Below are positions 6,928 to 25,098 of a stretch of 32,000 nt of DNA, piece after piece (the stretch's first letter is position 1; every line of letters begins with the position of its first letter). The stretch is taken from the NCBI RefSeq assembly GCF_001735745.1, contig NZ_CP017260.1, positions 1,380,001-1,412,000 of the forward strand. Reading direction: 5' to 3'. Below the pieces are notes generated by a model, which searched no databases, had not been told where the DNA came from, and worked only from the letters and a program-made list of their open reading frames with translations. The translations under genes were made by a program, and so were the position numbers. Source of the DNA: Formosa sp. Hel1_33_131. GTDB taxonomy: Bacteria > Bacteroidota > Bacteroidia > Flavobacteriales > Flavobacteriaceae.

Positions 6928-7872
6928 ATGATTACAAGCTTTTTTAAAACATCTAAACCAATTCACTATATAATTTTCTTAGTTGTACTGATTTGTATGT
7001 TTGTATTTCAACGAATTATTACAGTTGATTACGAAGTAAATCTCTCCAACACTCTAAGGGAAGTAGGCTATCTTTCAATACTCTTGGCGTCTTTTTTTAC
7101 CTTAATTTTTATCGTCACCAAAAACAACTTAACCCACAACAATAGTTACGCCGCACTTTACTTTTGTTTGTTTATTGGACTCATGCCATCTTGCCTAGAA
7201 ACGAATTCTGTACTCATTTCAAACTTTTTTATACTGCTCTCACTTCGAAGAATCGTGAGTTTAAAAACCAATTCAAACATCAAAAAGAAACTATTAGATG
7301 CTTCTATGTGGATTTGTCTAGCAGCTATTTATGAACCTTGGGCTATTTTGTTCTTTGCAGTCTTATTTTTGGGGATGGTATTTTACTCCGTTGCTCAAAC
7401 AAAAAACACCGTCATTCCTTTTTGTGGGATTTTAGCCGTTGGAATACTTTTGACCTGCTATCGATTACTCACAAAAAATATGTTTCCAAACCTTATCGAA
7501 TATTTACCCACCATTAGCTTTGACACCTTTTCATTCAATAACACAATAATAGAGGCACAGTCCCTTCTATTCCTAGCCTTTGTTTTATTTGGGATTGGCA
7601 GTTTTATTGCAAAAGGATTTCTTAAAAACAGAGTAGTGAACCCTAGTTTTTCAGTACTTATTTTAGCAATTCTTACAGGAATTACCATTGTGTTTCTAAG
7701 TTCGAATCACGGTCTTGCAGGTTATTTGTTTGCGTTTGCACCTTCCGCGATTGTGTTGGCAAATTTTTCTGAAACGACCAAATATCGTTGGTTATCAGAA
7801 TTTGTTTTAGGAGTGTTGCTTTTTGCAGTGCTGTTTCAAGTTGGGCTGAATATTCCATTTCCGCTAAACTAA
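6928..7872 (+). CDS. Polytopic integral membrane protein, unknown function
   Basis: 314 aa, hydrophobic almost throughout, with at least 8 predicted helices by eye. No catalytic motif recognised. Confidence 0.7.
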   Translation: MITSFFKTSKPIHYIIFLVVLICMFVFQRIITVDYEVNLSNTLREVGYLSILLASFFTLIFIVTKNNLTHNNSYAALYFCLFIGLMPSCLETNSVLISNFFILLSLRRIVSLKTNSNIKKKLLDASMWICLAAIYEPWAILFFAVLFLGMVFYSVAQTKNTVIPFCGILAVGILLTCYRLLTKNMFPNLIEYLPTISFDTFSFNNTIIEAQSLLFLAFVLFGIGSFIAKGFLKNRVVNPSFSVLILAILTGITIVFLSSNHGLAGYLFAFAPSAIVLANFSETTKYRWLSEFVLGVLLFAVLFQVGLNIPFPLN

Positions 7873-7888
7873 ACTAAAGAATTACTCT

Positions 7889-7896
7889 TATATTTG
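7889..7896 (+). promoter_or_regulatory. Candidate -7 box (TATATTTG)
   Basis: Exact TAnnTTTG match 19 nt upstream of the ATG at 7915. The extended 12-mer tatatttgccac also occurs on the minus strand at 6903-6914. Confidence 0.35.
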
Positions 7897-7914
7897 CCAC
7901 ATAAATAAAATAGC

Positions 7915-8523
7915 ATGTTTTCAAACAAAGCCAATTCCATTTTTCAAGACGTTATAGCAACCTATAAAGTTTTAAATTCAGTTGATCAACCGTTTCAGAA
8001 TAAACACGATAAAGGCGAAGACCTTATCGGACATTTACTCTATAGAAAAAGTTGGATTGATACCGTTCAATGGGCTTATGAAGATATTATTAGAGATCCA
8101 AATATTGATCCTGTAGCAGCCTTAAAATTAAAACGAAAGATTGATGCTTCTAACCAAGATAGAACAGACACCGTTGAGTTTATCGACAGTTATTTTTTAG
8201 AGACCTACAAAAACGTTCAGGCGAAACCAACGGCCAAAATCAACTCTGAAAGTCCAGCATGGGTAATCGATCGCTTATCGATTTTAGCCCTTAAGATTTA
8301 CCACATGCAGCTTGAAACAGTTCGTGAGGATGCCACGGAAGCCCATAAACAAAGCTGTCAAACAAAGCTAAATACACTTTTAGAACAACGTACGGACTTG
8401 TCTACTGCCATTGACGATTTGCTAGAAGACATTGCCAACGGCGACAAATACATGAAGGTTTATAAGCAAATGAAAATGTATAATGACGATGAACTAAACC
8501 CCGTTTTAAGAGGAATTAAATAA
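7915..8523 (+). CDS. Soluble protein, probably DUF4254 family
   Basis: 202-aa hydrophilic ORF immediately upstream of a GT9 gene. From memory, DUF4254 proteins of about 200 aa are the usual neighbour of GT9 genes in Bacteroidota. The family name has not been verified by search. Confidence 0.65.
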   Translation: MFSNKANSIFQDVIATYKVLNSVDQPFQNKHDKGEDLIGHLLYRKSWIDTVQWAYEDIIRDPNIDPVAALKLKRKIDASNQDRTDTVEFIDSYFLETYKNVQAKPTAKINSESPAWVIDRLSILALKIYHMQLETVREDATEAHKQSCQTKLNTLLEQRTDLSTAIDDLLEDIANGDKYMKVYKQMKMYNDDELNPVLRGIK

Positions 8524-8532
8524 TTTATTTTA

Positions 8533-9549
8533 GTGTCGGATCTCAAACACATACTTGTCATAAGACTCTCCTCCATGGGAGATGTTGCAATGACCGTTCC
8601 GGTACTGACCGCTTTCTCAAACGCAAATCCCACTATTAAACTCACGGTGTTGACCAAAAAACAGTTTACACCACTGTTTAAAGATTTGAAAATGGTGACC
8701 GTTCTTTCTGCAGATTTTAACACCACTCACAAAGGAGTTCTTGGATTATATCGACTTTCAAAAACAGTGCGAAACACCCACATAGACGCTGTTGCAGACT
8801 TGCACAACGTATTGCGAACAAAGGTTCTAAAACTCTTTTTGCCAGGTCTTAAGTTTACTCAAATAGACAAAGGCCGCGCTGAAAAAAAGGCATTAATCAC
8901 AGGAAAAATAAGCACGCCATTACGCACAACGCCACAACGCTATGCGGATGTTTTTAGAAATCTAGGTTTTGAATTTGAAATAGACACCCCTTCTTTTCCC
9001 ACCCCCAAACCATTAGATACTGAAATCACAAAAGTACTTGGAGATTTTTCAAAACCCGTTATTGGAATTGCGCCTTTTGCGGCCTATGCTTCCAAAACCT
9101 ATCCCATTTCAAAAATGGACAAAGTCATTTTTGAACTCCAAAAAGAGTCGAAAATTTTATTATTCGGAGGGGGACCAACTGAAACCAAACAATTAGAAAC
9201 CATCGCGTCTAAATATTCAAACGTAGGTTGTGTGGCGGGGAAGTTCAGCTTAGATCAAGAATTAGATATTATTTCTAATTTAAAAGTAATGCTCTCTATG
9301 GATTCTAGTAATGGACACATGGCAGCAATGCTTGGGGTAAAAGTAGTGACGCTTTGGGGAGTCACACATCCCTTTGCGGGATTTGCACCGTTTCATCAAT
9401 TGGCGACCCATAACCTACTATCCGATTTAGGAAAATATCCTAAAATCCCAACATCAATTTACGGAAACAACTATCCAGAAGGGTATGAGTTAGCGATGCA
9501 AACCATTTCAGTTGAGAGTATTATAAAAACGGTTCAAGACACGCTTTAA
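8533..9549 (+). CDS. Glycosyltransferase family 9 (heptosyltransferase-like)
   Basis: N-terminal ILVIRLSSMGDVAMTVPVL resembles the RxxxxGD motif of GT9. C-terminal block ISNLKVMLSMDSSNGHMAAMLGVKVVTLWG. GTG start. Confidence 0.8.
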   Translation: MSDLKHILVIRLSSMGDVAMTVPVLTAFSNANPTIKLTVLTKKQFTPLFKDLKMVTVLSADFNTTHKGVLGLYRLSKTVRNTHIDAVADLHNVLRTKVLKLFLPGLKFTQIDKGRAEKKALITGKISTPLRTTPQRYADVFRNLGFEFEIDTPSFPTPKPLDTEITKVLGDFSKPVIGIAPFAAYASKTYPISKMDKVIFELQKESKILLFGGGPTETKQLETIASKYSNVGCVAGKFSLDQELDIISNLKVMLSMDSSNGHMAAMLGVKVVTLWGVTHPFAGFAPFHQLATHNLLSDLGKYPKIPTSIYGNNYPEGYELAMQTISVESIIKTVQDTL

Positions 9550-18538: not shown

Positions 18539-18563
18539 AGTGATGAGTTCAGAGTTATAAGCT
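18539..18563. repeat. Left arm of the inverted repeat flanking the four-helix-bundle cassette
   Basis: agtgatgagttcagagttataagct pairs with 18925-18949 at 21 of 25 positions (hand alignment). The arm is built of GAGTT-like short units. Confidence 0.6.
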
Positions 18564-18598
18564 CATTTCTTTAACTTCATATTAATAGCTTAAAAAAA

Positions 18599-18933
18599 AT
18601 GTCTTTAAATAACAGTCCTATACGAGTAAAGAGTTTTTAGTTTGCTTGTGAGATTGTTCATTTTACGGATAAATTAAAAAAAATAAGGATTTTGAGTTAG
18701 CTTCTCAATTGCTAAAAAGCGGAACGAGTATTGGAGCCAATACAAGAGAAGCTCAAAGAGGAGTTAGTAAAAAGGACTTTAAAAATAAATTTGGAATTGC
18801 TTTAAAGGAAGCTGATGAGACCAAATATTGGTTAGAAATTCTTGAAGCTACAGGAAGAGAAGTTCCAACAGAAATGATGAATAAGTGTGAAGAGTTAATA
18901 AGAATTTTAGTAGCAATCATTAAAAACTCATAA
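18599..18933 (+). pseudogene. Four-helix-bundle protein (23S rRNA intervening-sequence protein family), disrupted
   Basis: The 3' part (ORF 18709-18933) reads QLLKSGTSIGANTREAQRGVSKKDFKNKFGIALKEADETKYWLEIL, the hallmark core of this family. The 5' part is in another frame from the ATG at 18599 (MSLNNSPIRVKSF*FACEIVHFTDKLKK). There is an in-frame TAG at 18638-18640 where family members have SFEFA. A frame change in the A8 run (18676-18683) is also needed. Confidence 0.7.
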
Positions 18934-19906: not shown

Positions 19907-20473
19907 TTAAAAAGTATACCCAACCCTTAAATGGAGGTCCAAAGCCGTTTCAGTTTTATTAGAAGTAAATCCATATTGTTTTAAGAAATACTTCCTAAAA
20001 CCGATTCCAATGCCCAACTCATAAGTGAAATGGTTCCCAACAGTTCTTTTAATTCCCCACTTAGGGATTAATGAAAAATTTTCAGCTATAGAAACGCTTT
20101 CAATGCTTGAAATCACAAACGCATCAGGCGTGTAATTTAATTTTAAACTTAAGAAATTCCCTGAGTTCTTTAAAATCGATTGGTCGTTATTGAAGCGTTT
20201 ATTCAAATTGTAATAGAACCGAGGTTCTAAATTCAACGTTGGAAACAAAATAAAATTTACATTCTTATAATAATCACCTCCAAAAAGACCGGTATCTAAG
20301 CCTATTTCACTTCTTAAAGCGATGCTATTGGACAGTCTTGTTTCATTATGAATCCAAACACCGAAAAACCCTGTTTGAATTCCATTAATTGATTTTTCAA
20401 CACTGGCATTTTTTTGTGCTTCTGTTGTAACTGAAAATAGAATTACAGAAAGTATTAGATATAGATGTTTCAT
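19907..20473 (-). CDS. Outer-membrane beta-barrel protein (small porin-like)
   Basis: Signal peptide MKHLYLILSVILFSVTTEAQ. Alternating amphipathic strands. C-terminal LHLRVGYTF, ending in Phe as is typical for OMPs. Confidence 0.65.
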   Translation of the reverse strand: MKHLYLILSVILFSVTTEAQKNASVEKSINGIQTGFFGVWIHNETRLSNSIALRSEIGLDTGLFGGDYYKNVNFILFPTLNLEPRFYYNLNKRFNNDQSILKNSGNFLSLKLNYTPDAFVISSIESVSIAENFSLIPKWGIKRTVGNHFTYELGIGIGFRKYFLKQYGFTSNKTETALDLHLRVGYTF

Positions 20474-20488
20474 GTGTTTGTATTTTAG

Positions 20489-21022
20489 TTATAATTTAAA
20501 CCCTAGTGACAGTCCGATACTAGAGATGAGATAATTTGAATTTGTTTCCTCGATCATTAAAAACTCCTTGCTTTTCACAAAGGCTTCAACCACATATTGA
20601 ACACGATAATCACTTTCAAAAGTATAGCCAATCCCTAATTTTGAGCTGTATCCTTTTGAGAATCCACTTATATTCAAGCTTTTCCCTGCGTTTAATAAAA
20701 CATAAGGACTGTTGATCCCATATTCTTTCAAATACCATTTTACATCTCCAACAATTGGGATGGACTTATAGTCGTCTTTAACATTAAAAGCGATGCCAAC
20801 CCCCAGAGAAATACTGAGCGTCTTAAAAACAAATACACCATTGAATGTACTTAATTCAATACCAAATCCTTCATTGACAACGATGGCTTGGTTGGAGTAA
20901 TTACTTTCTTTATTGGCAAAAATCTCTAAGGTGGTTGTGTTCGTAAACACGCTTTGATTCGCTTCACCTTGAGAGAGACAAAGGGAAGGGAAAATTAAAA
21001 ATAAGAGATATACGGTTTTCAT
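20489..21022 (-). CDS. Outer-membrane beta-barrel protein (small porin-like)
   Basis: Signal peptide MKTVYLLFLIFPSLCLSQ. Beta-strand-rich sequence ending GLSLGFKL. The start is placed at the ATG at 21022; the upstream TTG extension is encoded by the repeat. Confidence 0.6.
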   Translation of the reverse strand: MKTVYLLFLIFPSLCLSQGEANQSVFTNTTTLEIFANKESNYSNQAIVVNEGFGIELSTFNGVFVFKTLSISLGVGIAFNVKDDYKSIPIVGDVKWYLKEYGINSPYVLLNAGKSLNISGFSKGYSSKLGIGYTFESDYRVQYVVEAFVKSKEFLMIEETNSNYLISSIGLSLGFKL

Positions 21023-21065
21023 GACGTAGAATAGATTTGGGATCAATTCTTAATGCAAAGTAAGA
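21016..21065. repeat. Direct repeat copy A (promoter/5'UTR/start-codon module)
   Basis: ttttcatgacgtagaatagatttgggatcaattcttaatgcaaagtaaga. It differs from 24225-24275 by 2 substitutions and one 1-nt indel. It contains the CAT (ATG on the minus strand) of the OMP gene and a near-consensus -7 box (TTACTTTG on the minus strand). Confidence 0.85.
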
Positions 21066-21079
21066 TAACGATTTAGATT

Positions 21080-21889
21080 TCACCATCGTACTTGATAAGG
21101 ATAGGGTTCATAAATTTCGTTGGCTTCATTTATAGTATTGCCCAGTTGAGCATCGCGTTTAGCCGCTTCCATAGTTGTTTTTGATTCTTTATATTTTTCC
21201 AAACGCATCAAGCAAATTGCTTTATAATATTTCGCATCGGAAAAATTAGGGTACTGTTCAAGGGATTTATCAAACTGAAATATAGCGTCCTCCCACATCC
21301 CTTGTTCATACATACTTATACCATAATAGAAAATATCTAAAAAATGCGCCTCTCCCCATTGTTTTTCTTGCGCTATAATGTCCGTTTTAAAAATAGCTTC
21401 TGCCTTTTTGTATTCATTTAACTGTAAATAGCACAGTGCAATATGAAATTGATAGGTGTGATCCTGCACATAGCTATAGCCATCCATTTGAACACATAAC
21501 TCAAAATCTTTAAGAGCTTCTTTATACTGTTTAGAAAAAATACACTTGATAAATGCTCTATAGCTTAACCAGCGTTCTGGCTTATAAAAAACGGCTTTAT
21601 CTAAATATGCCATACCAACTTCATACTTTCTTGCTTTAAAATAAGGCATTGCTTTTTGCTGCCAAAAATAAGCGACAGTACTATCGACTTTGATTCCCTC
21701 ATCTAAGCAATTTTGCCACTCCTGCATCTGATAATTATAGTTGAATTTTTCAGCACAATTGTAAACATATTTTTCAATGAGTCCTTCTTGTCGTAATTCT
21801 TTTTCTTTTGCGGTTTCAGTATGAGAATCCTTTTGCCCTTCACATTGCATAAAAATAAAGGACAGGATAATTAGTGTTAATTTATTCAT
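21080..21889 (-). CDS. TPR-repeat lipoprotein
   Basis: Lipobox LSFIFMQC. At least three or four TPR-like units (AYFWQQKAMPYFKARKYEVGMAYLDKAV; YQFHIALCYLQLNEYKKAEAIF; FYYGISMYEQGMWEDAIFQFDKSL; AKYYKAICLMRLEKYKES). The ATG overlaps the end of the upstream ORF by 8 nt. Confidence 0.75.
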   Translation of the reverse strand: MNKLTLIILSFIFMQCEGQKDSHTETAKEKELRQEGLIEKYVYNCAEKFNYNYQMQEWQNCLDEGIKVDSTVAYFWQQKAMPYFKARKYEVGMAYLDKAVFYKPERWLSYRAFIKCIFSKQYKEALKDFELCVQMDGYSYVQDHTYQFHIALCYLQLNEYKKAEAIFKTDIIAQEKQWGEAHFLDIFYYGISMYEQGMWEDAIFQFDKSLEQYPNFSDAKYYKAICLMRLEKYKESKTTMEAAKRDAQLGNTINEANEIYEPYPYQVRW

Positions 21890-22760
21890 TAGTTTTGAGT
21901 GGGTTTAATTTGGTGAATTCTTTGTAAGTAAAATTATAGGGTTGATTTCGGTATGAAAATTCTGTAAACGTATAGCCATATTTTTTGCAACTTCTAACAC
22001 ACATATCACTGATCGTTTCAAAAACAGAAATACTGTTTTTAGTTAACACCTTTTCTATACCACCATAGTGTTTTATAACATTATTAAAAGTGTTTATATC
22101 TAAGTTGTATTTTATTAAATAAAAGCCAATTCTCCCTATTGCTTCATGTGCTTGTCGCTTATCAAAACAGTTATTAGAAATACAATTATCTAAACAGAGA
22201 ATAGTGGTGTAGTACGTATATAGGGCATGAAAAAGAATATAGAAACTTCTATATTCTTTGGGGTTGTTTACGATGCTTTTAATATTTAAATTTTCATCAA
22301 TTAGAAAATAGTCTTTTCTTTTAAAGGTAATAGTGGTCATAATAATATGACCGGTTTGATGCGCAATGTCATCCACAAAAAAAACTTCATCATACTCTTT
22401 TTGAAATACATTTAAAAAAGCCATGCCATGGGCATTAATAGTAGCAAATGAATTTGTATTTTTTGGGTCTGTTTTAAATAGGAGTATTTTTTTACAACAT
22501 TGTTCAATTAAATTATAATGATTGGAGGAGTATTTTTTTATATATGACAAGGCAATTGTTAAGGACTCTTCGTGAACTTCTACTAATTCCTTTGATATAG
22601 TTATTTTACGTTCCTCAATTGGCTGTTCATTAAAATCTCTGAAAATATATTTCAAGTAGATTATAGGGTATTGTATCAGTTCAATGTTGGTATGTGCTAT
22701 GAATTTTATTTTCTCAAATGGAATAGATTCATTAACTTTAAAATATCCAATATTTGGCAC
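21882..22760 (-). CDS. Unknown protein with HQTGH...H motif (possible HExxH-type peptide-modification domain); probably the C-terminal part of a split gene
   Basis: 292-aa ORF with a GTG start. FVDDIAHQTGHIIMT (H134/H138, nt 22347-22361) is followed about 40 aa later by NNPKEYRSFYILFHALYTYY. This resembles my recollection of the HExxH-domain family layout, but with Gln in place of Glu. The frame is open upstream as far as the A7 tract shared with the 75-aa ORF. Confidence 0.55.
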   Translation of the reverse strand: MPNIGYFKVNESIPFEKIKFIAHTNIELIQYPIIYLKYIFRDFNEQPIEERKITISKELVEVHEESLTIALSYIKKYSSNHYNLIEQCCKKILLFKTDPKNTNSFATINAHGMAFLNVFQKEYDEVFFVDDIAHQTGHIIMTTITFKRKDYFLIDENLNIKSIVNNPKEYRSFYILFHALYTYYTTILCLDNCISNNCFDKRQAHEAIGRIGFYLIKYNLDINTFNNVIKHYGGIEKVLTKNSISVFETISDMCVRSCKKYGYTFTEFSYRNQPYNFTYKEFTKLNPLKTNE

Positions 22761-22776
22761 ATAAGCTATCCCATCC

Positions 22777-23004
22777 CTACTGTATGAATGGGTTAATTTC
22801 TTCTTTTTTTATAAAATAGCCCTGTAGCATCTCCTCTAGAGCTTCTTTAGGGTACGAATTGTAGCTTTTTGAGTTAAAATAAGCAAATAATAATGGCTCT
22901 AAAAAAACTTCATCATCATCAAAATTTAGTTTTTTAAAAACACTTGTATTCTCTTTATATAATAACAGTTTAATGGTATTAATAATTTCGTCTCTATTTT
23001 TCAT
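22777..23004 (-). CDS. 75-aa ORF, probably the N-terminal fragment of the gene continuing at 22760
   Basis: The ATG at 23004 lies 12 nt after the CPBP stop. The ORF ends 18 nt past an A7 run (plus-strand T7 at 22804-22810). The downstream ORF's frame opens exactly at that run. No motif recognised. Confidence 0.45.
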   Translation of the reverse strand: MKNRDEIINTIKLLLYKENTSVFKKLNFDDDEVFLEPLLFAYFNSKSYNSYPKEALEEMLQGYFIKKEEINPFIQ

Positions 23005-23016
23005 TTTTTTTAATCC

Positions 23017-23610
23017 TTAAATTAAATTAAACACAATTATCGACATATTATAAAATGAGTGAATTAGAATCGTCTGAATTAAATTTTTATTTCTGAAATA
23101 AATAAAAGTAGTTACCAATCCAAACACAAAATGGGTAATATAAATATCAGGTAGATGAGATATAGCAAAATATGATGCTGACAGTAAAATAGCCAAATAT
23201 GGCTTTAACTTAAGTTGCAAAAGGTTTTTAAAGACAATTTTTTTATTAAAAATCTCTTCTATAATTGGAACCGCAAATAAAACATAAATAAGCCTTGAAA
23301 AATCAAAGGTTGGTTTTTCTAATGGTTTAAAAAGATGAAATTCTGAATAGTAACTAAAAAACAACACTACACTTATACCAAGGGAAAAAAGGATTTCATT
23401 GAAACTGATTTTGTTACTTTCTAATTTAAAAATATTTATTTTAAAAGCTATATAGAACACAATAATATGAGAAATTATAACCCCGAAATAAGATAATAAA
23501 TTTGTTGTTTTTATGTTTTCATTGCCAAAATGAACACTTAAAAGGACACTCAAAACACTTAGAAATGGAAGTAGTAAGCATAGTGTCAATATTTTAAAAG
23601 ACAATTTCAT
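23017..23610 (-). CDS. CPBP family intramembrane glutamic endopeptidase (CAAX protease/Abi, bacteriocin-immunity-type)
   Basis: Six or more TM helices. Motif 1 PIIEEIFNK (EExxxR-like). Motif 2 YFAISH (FxxxH). Motif 3 IHSFYN (HxxxN). Confidence 0.8.
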   Translation of the reverse strand: MKLSFKILTLCLLLPFLSVLSVLLSVHFGNENIKTTNLLSYFGVIISHIIVFYIAFKINIFKLESNKISFNEILFSLGISVVLFFSYYSEFHLFKPLEKPTFDFSRLIYVLFAVPIIEEIFNKKIVFKNLLQLKLKPYLAILLSASYFAISHLPDIYITHFVFGLVTTFIYFRNKNLIQTILIHSFYNMSIIVFNLI

Positions 23611-23626
23611 ATAAATGTTTTTATAA

Positions 23627-23658
23627 AAAAAGATGATTTAATAAAAAACCATCTTTTT
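23627..23658 (-). terminator. AT-rich hairpin plus T-run between the peptide gene and the CPBP gene (possible attenuator)
   Basis: On the minus strand: AAAAAGATG-14 nt loop-CATCTTTTT, running into TTTTTTTAT. Plus-strand arms are 23627-23635 and 23650-23658. The stem is weak (mostly A-T). Confidence 0.3.
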
Positions 23659-23669
23659 ATTTAACTTAT

Positions 23670-23876
23670 CTACATACATTGAAAATAATGGGCTATTGCA
23701 TTACCAAGTTTTAGCCACGAAGAAGCCATTCCATCTCCTGGTGCACTAGTGTCTGCATTTTGGTGACTACAAGGATGACAATCGTTTGCTGTTCCACCAG
23801 AAATGGTGTTCAATAATTCTTCTGAAGCTACTGCTCCAGCTCTTTCTTTGAGAGCGTCTAATGATAATTTACTCAC
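23670..23876 (-). CDS. Candidate precursor peptide with double-glycine-type leader (bacteriocin/RiPP-like)
   Basis: 68 aa with a GTG start. Leader MSKLSLDALKERAGAVASEELLNTISGG, with hydrophobic residues at -4 and -7, Glu at -9/-10 and Ser at -11 relative to the GG. The 40-aa core is TANDCHPCSHQNADTSAPGDGMASSWLKLGNAIAHYFQCM. The gene is followed by a protease-family gene. Confidence 0.55.
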   Translation of the reverse strand: MSKLSLDALKERAGAVASEELLNTISGGTANDCHPCSHQNADTSAPGDGMASSWLKLGNAIAHYFQCM

Positions 23877-24009: not shown

Positions 24010-24231
24010 TTAAATCTCAAAATTGTAACCTGCCTCTGTATATATATAACACTGAGAATGTTTACAATATAGGATGGGTGCGCCCCGATCTCTTAATTCA
24101 GCGATCAGCCTGTAAACAGTGGCAACAGAAACATTCAATTTTTCAGCTAATTGTAAAGGCGTACCAGTTGCTTCCCTTTGGATCAATGAATGAAGGCATT
24201 TTATTCTTTCTATGTGCGTGTATATTTTCAT
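24010..24231 (-). CDS. Small helix-turn-helix DNA-binding protein (HTH_11/DeoR-N-like)
   Basis: 73 aa. GTPLQLAEKLNVSVATVYRLIAELRDRGAPI is a classic winged-HTH segment of the kind found at the N-terminus of WYL/DeoR-type regulators. Confidence 0.7.
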   Translation of the reverse strand: MKIYTHIERIKCLHSLIQREATGTPLQLAEKLNVSVATVYRLIAELRDRGAPILYCKHSQCYIYTEAGYNFEI

Positions 24232-24275
24232 GGTGTAGAATAGATTTGGGAGTCAATTCTTAATGCAAAGTAAGA
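24225..24275. repeat. Direct repeat copy B (promoter/5'UTR/start-codon module)
   Basis: ttttcatggtgtagaatagatttgggagtcaattcttaatgcaaagtaaga. It contains the CAT (ATG on the minus strand) of the HTH gene. See copy A. Confidence 0.85.
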
Positions 24276-24338
24276 AATTTTTTCAAATCGGCTTTTTTTA
24301 TGGCATAAAACTTGTAGAAGAAAAACAAATCCAAAACT

Positions 24339-24962
24339 ATGAATACCTACAAAAGATTAATTATTGGTTCTCTTATCTTATTTTCAAACATATCATTTTC
24401 GCAAACTCAAGGAACATCCGAAATTAATGTGAGTTTGGGGGTCGCAACTTTTGAGGACTTTAGAGTTGCACTTGACGATGTTGTATCCTCGATAGTGACG
24501 ACTGTAATTTCTGGACAAGAATTAACTTACTCCGATGGAGGTAGATTAACAGGATATACGGCTCACTATGGTTACGCAGTAAAGGATCGATGGATGTTAG
24601 GAGCCTCATTAGCATACCAAACCGTAAATCGAAAGTTATTTTTAGACAATAAAGAATCAGGGAAAAGTTCAAGTGCAGTCTATTCTTTTGGGATCGAAAC
24701 AAATTACCGCTACATTTCAAATCCAATATTTCAAATGTATTCTGGTTTAGGTGCAGGCTATGCTTTTGGGAAATCATCATTTACCTTAGAAGACGCTAAT
24801 TTGGAGTTTAAAGATAAGAACAAGACTGATTATAAAATTAATTATTTTACATTTCATGTGACAGCGCTTGGTTTTCGAGTAGGAAAGAAATTAGCGGCCT
24901 TCGCAGAAATCGGGTTTGGTTATAAAGGGATCTTAAATGGGGGAATTTCTTATCAATTTTAG
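24339..24962 (+). CDS. Outer-membrane beta-barrel protein (OmpW/porin-like)
   Basis: Signal peptide LIIGSLILFSNISFSQTQ. Alternating strands. C-terminal GGISYQF. Confidence 0.7.
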   Translation: MNTYKRLIIGSLILFSNISFSQTQGTSEINVSLGVATFEDFRVALDDVVSSIVTTVISGQELTYSDGGRLTGYTAHYGYAVKDRWMLGASLAYQTVNRKLFLDNKESGKSSSAVYSFGIETNYRYISNPIFQMYSGLGAGYAFGKSSFTLEDANLEFKDKNKTDYKINYFTFHVTALGFRVGKKLAAFAEIGFGYKGILNGGISYQF

Positions 24963-25098
24963 AATGTCTTTAAGGGTATAAAATCTACTCAAAATAGCAC
25001 CATCAACGAATCAGTGGCTTCAGGGGTTGCCGTATTTTTAGGCTTTAATTTCAAACTCAATTAAAATCCGTATGTTTATAAATCTAAACTCAATCCAA

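Follow-up and report, generated by a model that had tools for sequence, protein, structure and literature searches.

Genes at the locus

The window analysed here is a stretch of 32,000 nucleotides from the complete 2.74-Mb genome of Formosa sp. Hel1_33_131. A candidate precursor peptide gene of 68 codons (23670..23876, minus strand; FORMB_13290 / AOR28373.1), annotated as a hypothetical protein, is read from a GTG, with an in-frame TAG 9 codons (27 nt) upstream and no ATG between the two. The encoded peptide was divided into a leader of 28 codons (23793..23876, minus strand) and a core of 40 aa. The leader (MSKLSLDALKERAGAVASEELLNTISGG, 28 aa; tail end ...ASEELLNTISGG) closes with Gly-Gly, encoded at 23793-23798, and is preserved among 104 homologues; counting back from its end, Ile is found at -4, Leu at -7 and -8, Glu at -9 and -10 and Ser at -11. 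The core (TANDCHPCSHQNADTSAPGDGMASSWLKLGNAIAHYFQCM) starts TANDCH, is anionic with a net charge of -2, and has Cys at positions 5, 8 and 39 and His at positions 6, 10 and 35. In the core, these residues lie exactly where the original prediction, made from the sequence, had placed them.

The Cys-His dipeptide of core residues 5-6 (23775..23780, minus strand), present in all 104 precursors collected, is the probable modification site. It is followed by the hypervariable part of the core (PCSHQ...AHYFQCM; 23673..23774, minus strand), which holds the lineage-specific Cys8, His10, His35 and Cys39 and an amphipathic C-terminal stretch. The amphipathicity predicted for the second half of the core was recovered in this stretch (SSWLKLGNAIAHYF), whose helical hydrophobic moment (muH 0.46) was equalled by 16/5000 shuffles.

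The neighbouring genes lie on the same (minus) strand. Directly upstream of the precursor gene is the gene for an HTH_11 regulator of 73 aa (24010..24231), conserved in marine relatives. The same ~50-bp 5' region was seen ahead of this HTH gene and of a 177-aa gene that lies downstream of the cluster. The stop codon of the precursor is immediately followed by a 13-bp AU-rich hairpin and a U-run (23620..23658; dG -12 kcal/mol, z -2.3); the element is terminator- or attenuator-like and falls under the GC threshold of the terminator scan. The next gene encodes a CPBP / Rce1-like intramembrane protease of 197 aa (23017..23610; PF02517), a candidate immunity or processing protein. A putative modifying enzyme follows in two parts: an N-terminal fragment of 75 aa (22777..23004), truncated by the loss of 2 nt near 22796, and the predicted catalytic C-terminal part (21882..22799), with HQTGH, other conserved His and Arg residues and an aKG-HExxH-like fold, for which the mechanical ORF gave 292 aa from a GTG at 22760. 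The last conserved member of the cluster is a TPR protein of 269 aa (21080..21889) with a lipoprotein-type signal (MNKLTLIILSFIFMQC). A sigma-70 promoter scan, which does not model Bacteroidota promoters, gave 17 sites against 20 expected, and none of the FORMB_132xx tags was found in the supplements of the Formosa proteomics paper.

Homologues of the precursor were collected from a protein collection (46 proteins of 53-83 aa, with a conserved leader, a TxNxCH motif and divergent tails), and the exact peptide was present in 67 blocks of the assembly collection. Against a 75%-identical homologue on contig L004, dN/dS was 0.34 for the precursor, 0.33 for the leader and 0.30 for the core, so that the comparison of leader with core put forward earlier as a check gave purifying selection. 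The reading frame is conserved in relatives: the core lengths of the three closest homologues differ solely by a whole-codon insertion (4 aa more in P0004), the homologues keep the GG, and the peptide is unchanged across all contigs examined, with a stop or frameshift in none. A chance ORF was ruled out because of the homologues, the dN/dS and the conserved frame; as judged by sequence comparison, the ORF is a real gene under purifying selection. The start codon is ATG in all other precursor homologues and in two near-identical contigs (L008 and L009), and read across this alignment the GTG is an ATG/GTG polymorphism at the normal start codon of the family. GTG is usable as a bacterial start codon. 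The original prediction was right that no ATG precedes the core and that GTG is the sole start, but the doubt it attached to this start fell away with the polymorphism.

A leader-bearing peptide family and its gene cluster in Bacteroidota

Among 104 distinct precursors, the GG was present in 104/104, and Cys-His was found 4-10 residues past it in 104/104 and at +5/+6 in 91/104. The leaders are 26-30 aa long, with a mean pairwise identity of 0.61 across the 104 homologues. Their consensus is M(S)KLSLDALKERA.AVASEELL..ISGG, followed by a few residues and then Cys-His, beyond which the sequences are unrelated. The proposed division of the window peptide into a 28-aa GG leader and a 40-aa core was thereby confirmed, the leader being conserved and the core hypervariable. 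Cys-His is the sole core element conserved family-wide, a further Cys being present in the tail of 31/104 precursors and absent from that of 73/104.

These counts bear on two further claims about the core. The reading of its cysteines as a thioredoxin/DsbA-style CxxC was not sustained, given that CHPC occurs in a few close relatives only, the closest relative, P0004, has CHPQEC and a second Cys is missing from 73/104 precursors. As to the proposed disulfide or metal site, the six Cys/His positions are conserved together only in the four-member closest subfamily, where a lineage-specific site is possible.

The enzyme was also used as bait, independently of the peptide, and 48 genome loci were fetched from Flavobacterium, Kordia, Aureivirga, Aquimarina, Chryseobacterium, Pedobacter, Mucilaginibacter, Gaetbulibacter, Taibaiella, Saprospiraceae and others. 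The bait loci carry 1-6 leader-bearing small ORFs adjoining the enzyme. The tblastn query for precursors contained CH, and the loci where tblastn failed were re-scanned without the CH requirement, for any M-start ORF with GG near the enzyme. In 10 more loci this brought out a leader-like peptide immediately ahead of the enzyme, in each case with CH. Similar small ORFs near CPBP or HTH genes, the neighbourhood in which the original prediction had expected them, recur in the homologous loci.

The common gene order is HTH (where present), precursor(s), ~372-aa enzyme, TPR protein, C39-peptidase ABC transporter (PCAT) and HlyD; it is kept in metagenome contigs and in the 48 genome loci. The C39-peptidase ABC exporter of the homologous loci has 731 aa and is TIGR01193/TIGR03796-like, the HlyD-type adaptor has 430 aa, and PCAT and HlyD are found in most of these loci. 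In PCAT systems the cut after GG is coupled to export, and the C39-peptidase ABC transporter of the clusters therefore supports post-GG cleavage coupled to export in this family.

The family was compared with double-glycine/PCAT peptides (class II bacteriocins, some lanthipeptides, NHLP/Nif11). It shares with them a GG leader of ~28 aa with hydrophobic residues at -4/-7 and acidic residues or Ser from -9 to -11, as well as homologous loci that encode a C39-peptidase ABC transporter and HlyD. It differs in being conserved six residues past GG, to Cys-His, in a precursor that curated leader models do not match, and in the Hel1_33_131 locus, which is without the transporter. The window peptide had no NCBIfam/Pfam match at E <= 1 and none in NCBIfam at E <= 10, and it was thus unmatched by any curated leader or bacteriocin model of these libraries (e.g. 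TIGR01847). Seven other diverse precursors gave chance-level matches to NCBIfam only (E 0.13-0.38) or none, and no paper or curated model for the precursor family was found in the literature and family libraries searched. The arrangement by which RiPP precursors are recognized, a conserved leader and a variable core beside a modifying-enzyme gene, was found, the enzyme gene of the window being frameshifted.

The regulator and the strain-specific cores could also belong to a secreted pheromone (ComC/BlpC-like) that is exported and sensed, with the adjacent 73-aa HTH protein as its responder. The HTH_11 gene lies directly upstream in marine lineages, the cores resemble pherotypes, and the HTH gene shares its ~50-bp 5' region with the downstream 177-aa gene. 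However, outside the marine lineages an HTH gene was found in L031 only, among the loci obtained by leader-similarity tblastn; no receptor kinase or peptide-binding regulator domain was found; and up to six precursors per locus, together with co-varying CPBP, fit toxin and immunity better. We regard a pheromone as distinctly improbable.

The putative modifying enzyme and the Cys-His pair

The enzyme has no Pfam/NCBIfam match of its own, and its relationship surfaced only through structure prediction with Foldseek and through scans of many family members. When a profile was run against 1.84 billion representatives, 703 clusters came out at E <= 1e-3, which puts the family at about 700 clusters at 50% identity, from many Bacteroidota genera. 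The AlphaFold (AF2) model built from 46 sequences had a pLDDT of 91.9 and a pTM of 0.92. Its best Foldseek match in the PDB was the ChlB HExxH domain (8s5f; E 1.3e-6, probability 1.00, TM 0.54-0.60), described as "a novel alpha-ketoglutarate dependent oxygenase"; the second was SjiH-Ni (22ob; E 4.8e-5), and all others had E > 1. The model thus has the aKG-HExxH fold.

At the level of sequence, TIGR04267.2 (aKG-HExxH-type peptide beta-hydroxylase) was the sole NCBIfam family matched repeatedly, by 10/46 close members (below threshold) and by 9/64 diverse members; the distant member P0304 was the only one to reach the cut-off (40.3 bits, cut-off 40). Neither the window enzyme fragments nor an intact 380-aa homologue matched TIGR04267 (IPR026337) at E <= 1, and searching the PDB by sequence and by profile, with A1, P0304 and a broader profile (A3), gave nothing or noise (e.g. 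haemagglutinin at E ~0.07). The HExxH motif itself is replaced by HQTGH or HQCGH, with Gln for Glu throughout the clade, and 64 diverse members show almost no variation at H216, Q217, H220, H260, R253 and R292. According to the model, the enzyme would fold like the aKG/Fe HExxH peptide oxygenases, with HQxxH in place of HExxH, and its catalysis is a prediction.

The aKG-HExxH enzymes described in the literature act as hydroxylases on Asp, His, Gln or Pro and are capable of oxidative backbone cleavage: ChlBH beta-hydroxylates Asp/His, PflC/PosC carry out Gln hydroxylation and oxidative backbone cleavage, and BpmH and the nitrilobacillin Pro hydroxylase are further RiPP enzymes of this type (PMC12636437, PMC13060819). 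The system described here is like those pathways in its predicted fold (that of the ChlB HExxH domain and SjiH), in its weak-to-threshold TIGR04267 matches and in a stand-alone enzyme adjoining a leader-bearing precursor. It differs in that HQxxH runs throughout the clade and close members stay below the family cut-off, in that no radical SAM/MNIO partner is present here, and in that Cys-His is not, in these papers, a substrate of any of those enzymes (PMC12636437, PMC13060819). The cluster also adds a TPR lipoprotein, PCAT and HlyD, and its hosts are Bacteroidota. No paper on a system of HQxxH enzyme, Bacteroidota host and Cys-His was found in the literature searched. A GG leader with PCAT, an enzyme of the aKG-HExxH fold and CPBP are each of a known kind, but their combination seems undescribed in the libraries and literature searched. 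What seems to be new is the joining of an invariant Cys-His, an HQxxH clade that is mostly sub-threshold, a TPR lipoprotein and a Bacteroidota-wide spread.

The number of enzymes was compared with the number of Cys-His motifs. Two enzyme paralogues were present at 8 loci, and the precursors of 6/8 have two CH motifs; at these six (L020, L021, L023, L025, L026 and L027) the paralogues flank the precursor. The double motifs are CHTDNCH (L021, L025), CHTDDCH, CHGNNCH, CHLDSCH and CHNDSCH. The exceptions are L019 and L028, with two enzymes and one CH, and L054, where a single enzyme goes with two distant CH. The six double-CH loci probably share ancestry and stand for few independent events, so that the link to enzyme number is suggestive and not proof. 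Because two-CH precursors accompany 6/8 of the two-enzyme loci, the invariant Cys-His pair is probably what the enzyme modifies. That the core is modified at all we infer only from the invariance of Cys-His and its linkage to the enzyme.

MNIO/DUF692 systems (methanobactin, bufferins, chryseobasin) are alike in having an invariant Cys in a short motif beside a non-haem-iron-type enzyme, and some of them occur in Bacteroidota (PMC12636315). The enzyme here differs in having another fold and no DUF692 match. Domains of MNIO/DUF692, radical SAM, YcaO and lanthipeptide enzymes were all absent from the cluster, and these four routes were dropped for that reason.

The iron oxygenase-like partner nevertheless recalls the MNIO-made thiooxazole copper binders, and the peptide might be a metallophore or metal buffer in which Cys-His, native or enzyme-converted, would act with Cys8, His10, His35 and Cys39 as Cu/Zn/Fe ligands. 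The invariance of Cys-His, its doubling to CHxxxCH in some relatives and the conservation of the six Cys/His positions in the closest subfamily are in keeping with such a role. Against it, the tails are hypervariable, 73/104 precursors have no further Cys and a locus often holds several different precursors, a variability typical of antagonistic or signalling peptides and not of a conserved chelator. The cluster also lacks metal-uptake or efflux genes. A metal-binding peptide is, in our view, very unlikely.

The core and CPBP cassette and the state of the locus in Hel1_33_131

The CPBP gene matched PF02517 with an E of 1.8e-15 (57.4 bits, cut-off 22.4). The motifs that define the family (Glu-Glu, FxxxH and HxxxN) are intact in its translation as EEIFNK, FAISH and HSFYN. 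By comparison with L003, the variable core, the hairpin and the CPBP gene form a swappable cassette (23002..23771, minus strand). The DNA of the window and L003 is 81% identical through the HTH gene and the leader; this homology ends at 23772, one codon past Cys-His, and is back, at 92%, from 23001, the start of the enzyme gene. In place of the window cassette, L003 has a different core and no CPBP gene. The window core type is accompanied by two CPBP genes in L004-L006, and L060 combines another core type with a diverged CPBP. In two assemblies, a further core type comes with an ORF of 626-630 aa that fuses CPBP in frame to the enzyme (CPBP::enzyme); yet another lacks CPBP but has an extra amidohydrolase. 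CPBP content varies among core types and, on these alignments, CPBP is therefore tied to core type.

Abi/CPBP proteins are immunity proteins of class II bacteriocins. Like the PF02517 immunity genes of Gram-positive class II loci, the gene studied here lies directly after the peptide gene with its motifs intact, and its presence and copy number vary with core type. By analogy, the tie to core type fits cognate immunity. Unlike them, it belongs to a Bacteroidota host, its function here is that of a candidate, and two relatives have an in-frame fusion of CPBP to the enzyme, which points to a maturation role. Such fusions would fit core-specific processing, and a maturation role fits them better than pure immunity. 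The swapping of core and CPBP as one cassette suggests a toxin-immunity or a processing pair.

An Abi-type immunity protein would also be expected of an unmodified class II-type bacteriocin, held by a disulfide staple between Cys5/Cys8 and Cys39 and attacking membranes with its C-terminal helix. The four closest homologues keep Cys5, Cys8 and Cys39 as well as the amphipathic tail, CPBP genes travel with the window core type, the enzyme is broken in Hel1_33_131, and the part of Abi/CPBP proteins in class II bacteriocin immunity fits as well. However, across the family Cys-His is invariant and the enzyme strictly linked, which speaks for modification as the general case; a net charge of -2 makes the core anionic, and the locus is without an exporter. 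We consider an unmodified bacteriocin unlikely.

The condition of the locus in Hel1_33_131 was assessed by aligning the window with four near-identical contigs (L007-L010). Position 23876 is G (GTG) in the window, L007 and L010 and A (ATG) in L008 and L009. Two A's near 22796 are missing from the window, L007 and L010, so that the 374-aa enzyme is split into ORFs of 75 aa and 292 aa; the GTG start and the 2-nt enzyme frameshift are thus linked in the same haplotype. The split enzyme genes are annotated in the isolate genome (FORMB_13270 and FORMB_13260), and the split form is found on dozens of contigs, as are intact forms. Because it recurs in this way, the split-enzyme haplotype is, as far as sequences can tell, genuine and common and not an assembly error.

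PCAT and HlyD were found neither in the 32-kb window nor in L007-L010; in all five, what comes after the TPR gene is a pair of small unknown secreted proteins and the ATP synthase operon. A search with the cognate PCAT gave, as its best 120, orthologues of 78-100% identity from many named flavobacteria, and none of these best 120 was from Hel1_33_131, which for an indirect search is a weak negative. The precursor, CPBP, TPR and HTH genes are intact in Hel1_33_131, and the CPBP protein is 100% identical in the window and L007-L010. L008 and L009 have an intact enzyme and the ATG start, yet no local PCAT, and the system may work through an exporter encoded elsewhere. The two parts of the split enzyme could conceivably act as subunits. 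Because of the GTG start, the split enzyme and the missing PCAT and HlyD, maturation and export are probably impaired in Hel1_33_131; the strain looks set to make at most an unmodified or unexported peptide, and the locus looks partly decayed. The CPBP gene that is kept may provide orphan immunity.

These observations can be carried further, to a precursor gene that goes untranslated or has no use, left over from a bacteriocin/RiPP cluster since lost, with selection acting only on CPBP as orphan immunity against a peptide of neighbouring strains. The linkage of the GTG to the 2-nt enzyme frameshift would agree with such a remnant, as would the locus without PCAT/HlyD in the window and L007-L010, the lack of a close Hel1_33_131 PCAT orthologue among the best 120 matches and the CPBP protein that is 100% identical in five sequences. 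On the other hand, GTG can serve as a bacterial start, and none of the contigs examined shows a change, stop or frameshift in the peptide sequence. Haplotypes with an intact enzyme and ATG coexist with the split one, at a divergence too low to detect relaxed selection, and the enzyme loss is therefore recent or neutral. This view of the locus as a remnant is largely compatible with that of a RiPP precursor; we give it a real but minor share of the probability.

Taken together, we think it likely that this gene supplies the precursor (A-peptide) for ribosomally made and secreted peptides that depend on a leader and form a family widespread in Bacteroidota but so far uncharacterised, with the following outline of a mechanism, in each step of which our confidence is lower. 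The enzyme would bind the precursor leader in the cytoplasm and would oxidatively modify Cys-His, perhaps by hydroxylation, a Cys-centred cross-link or a heterocycle. PCAT would then cut after GG and export a product starting TANDCH, whose variable amphipathic tail would provide target specificity. CPBP, from the same cassette, would be the matching immunity or processing factor. Hel1_33_131 itself holds a damaged copy of this system, and the peptide is probably not matured there.

A wider reading is offered tentatively, as one we hold to be rather less probable than its negation. The HQxxH enzymes would be a new branch of the aKG-HExxH fold that acts on Cys-His and installs a modification undescribed in ribosomal peptides, which may for example be a thiohistidine-like thioether formed between Cys and His within the peptide, or some other oxidation centred on Cys. 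This would make a new RiPP class spread over hundreds of Bacteroidota lineages, with toxin cores and CPBP genes exchanged as cassettes between co-occurring marine strains.

The family is a lead for discovery, with a large group of enzymes and a modification site, Cys-His, that is simple to test, in a fold class for which new reactions continue to come to light. The host of the locus is an abundant flavobacterium associated with North Sea blooms. The swapping of core and CPBP and the coexistence of producer-type and degraded haplotypes are what would be expected from peptide antagonism and immunity "cheating" in bloom bacteria.

Genes at the exporter position

In the lineage of the window, the site of the PCAT (the C39-peptidase ABC exporter) and HlyD adaptor genes is taken by genes for two small, paralogous-looking secreted proteins of about 177 and 188 aa (19907-21046), with a weak match to DUF6705. 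The gene for the 177-aa protein comes after the TPR gene, at the PCAT position of the relatives. A direct repeat of about 50 bp (90-93% identical) was found at 24225-24275 and 21016-21065; the former copy takes in the start codon (ATG) of the HTH gene together with its 5' region, and the latter does the same for the 177-aa protein gene. The two copies may act as a common operator or promoter; alternatively, the repeat may be a scar from the rearrangement that deleted the PCAT and HlyD genes.

An insertion in the window and a gene within the ATP synthase operon

Relative to the homologous loci L003 and L004, a 728-bp insertion was detected at 24316-25043. Its outer-membrane beta-barrel gene (24339-24962, + strand; 207 aa; weak, sub-threshold PF13505 match) sits between the HTH gene and a conserved 167/176-aa gene. 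According to the annotation of the colinear, near-identical locus L007, from which its position (about 18545-18900) was taken, a gene for a 23S rRNA intervening-sequence-type protein (PF05635, 111 aa) is located within the ATP synthase operon, flanked by the genes for the alpha and gamma subunits.

Variants of the HQxxH enzyme

The site of the enzyme frameshift, at 22790-22800 in the window and at the corresponding position in L003, L008 and P0047, is indel-prone. The alleles read EEIKITHSY in L003, EEIKTHSY in L008/L009 and EEIITHSY in the homologous protein P0047; that of the window carries the 2-nt deletion. ORFs of 626-630 aa in which CPBP is fused in frame to the HQxxH enzyme were found in two independent assemblies (L059, 3530-5422, and protein P0048), standing after a related precursor with the core CHPCSDC...WLLHVLTH.

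Additional members of homologous clusters

Two CH-bearing precursors are accompanied in L044 (7066-10600) by four more GG-leader peptides without Cys-His, which may be unmodified peptides using the same exporter. In L062/L063, where the core is of the WEWIFGG type, an Amidohydro_1 gene (7449-8753) lies between the enzyme and TPR genes, and its product may provide an additional tailoring step.
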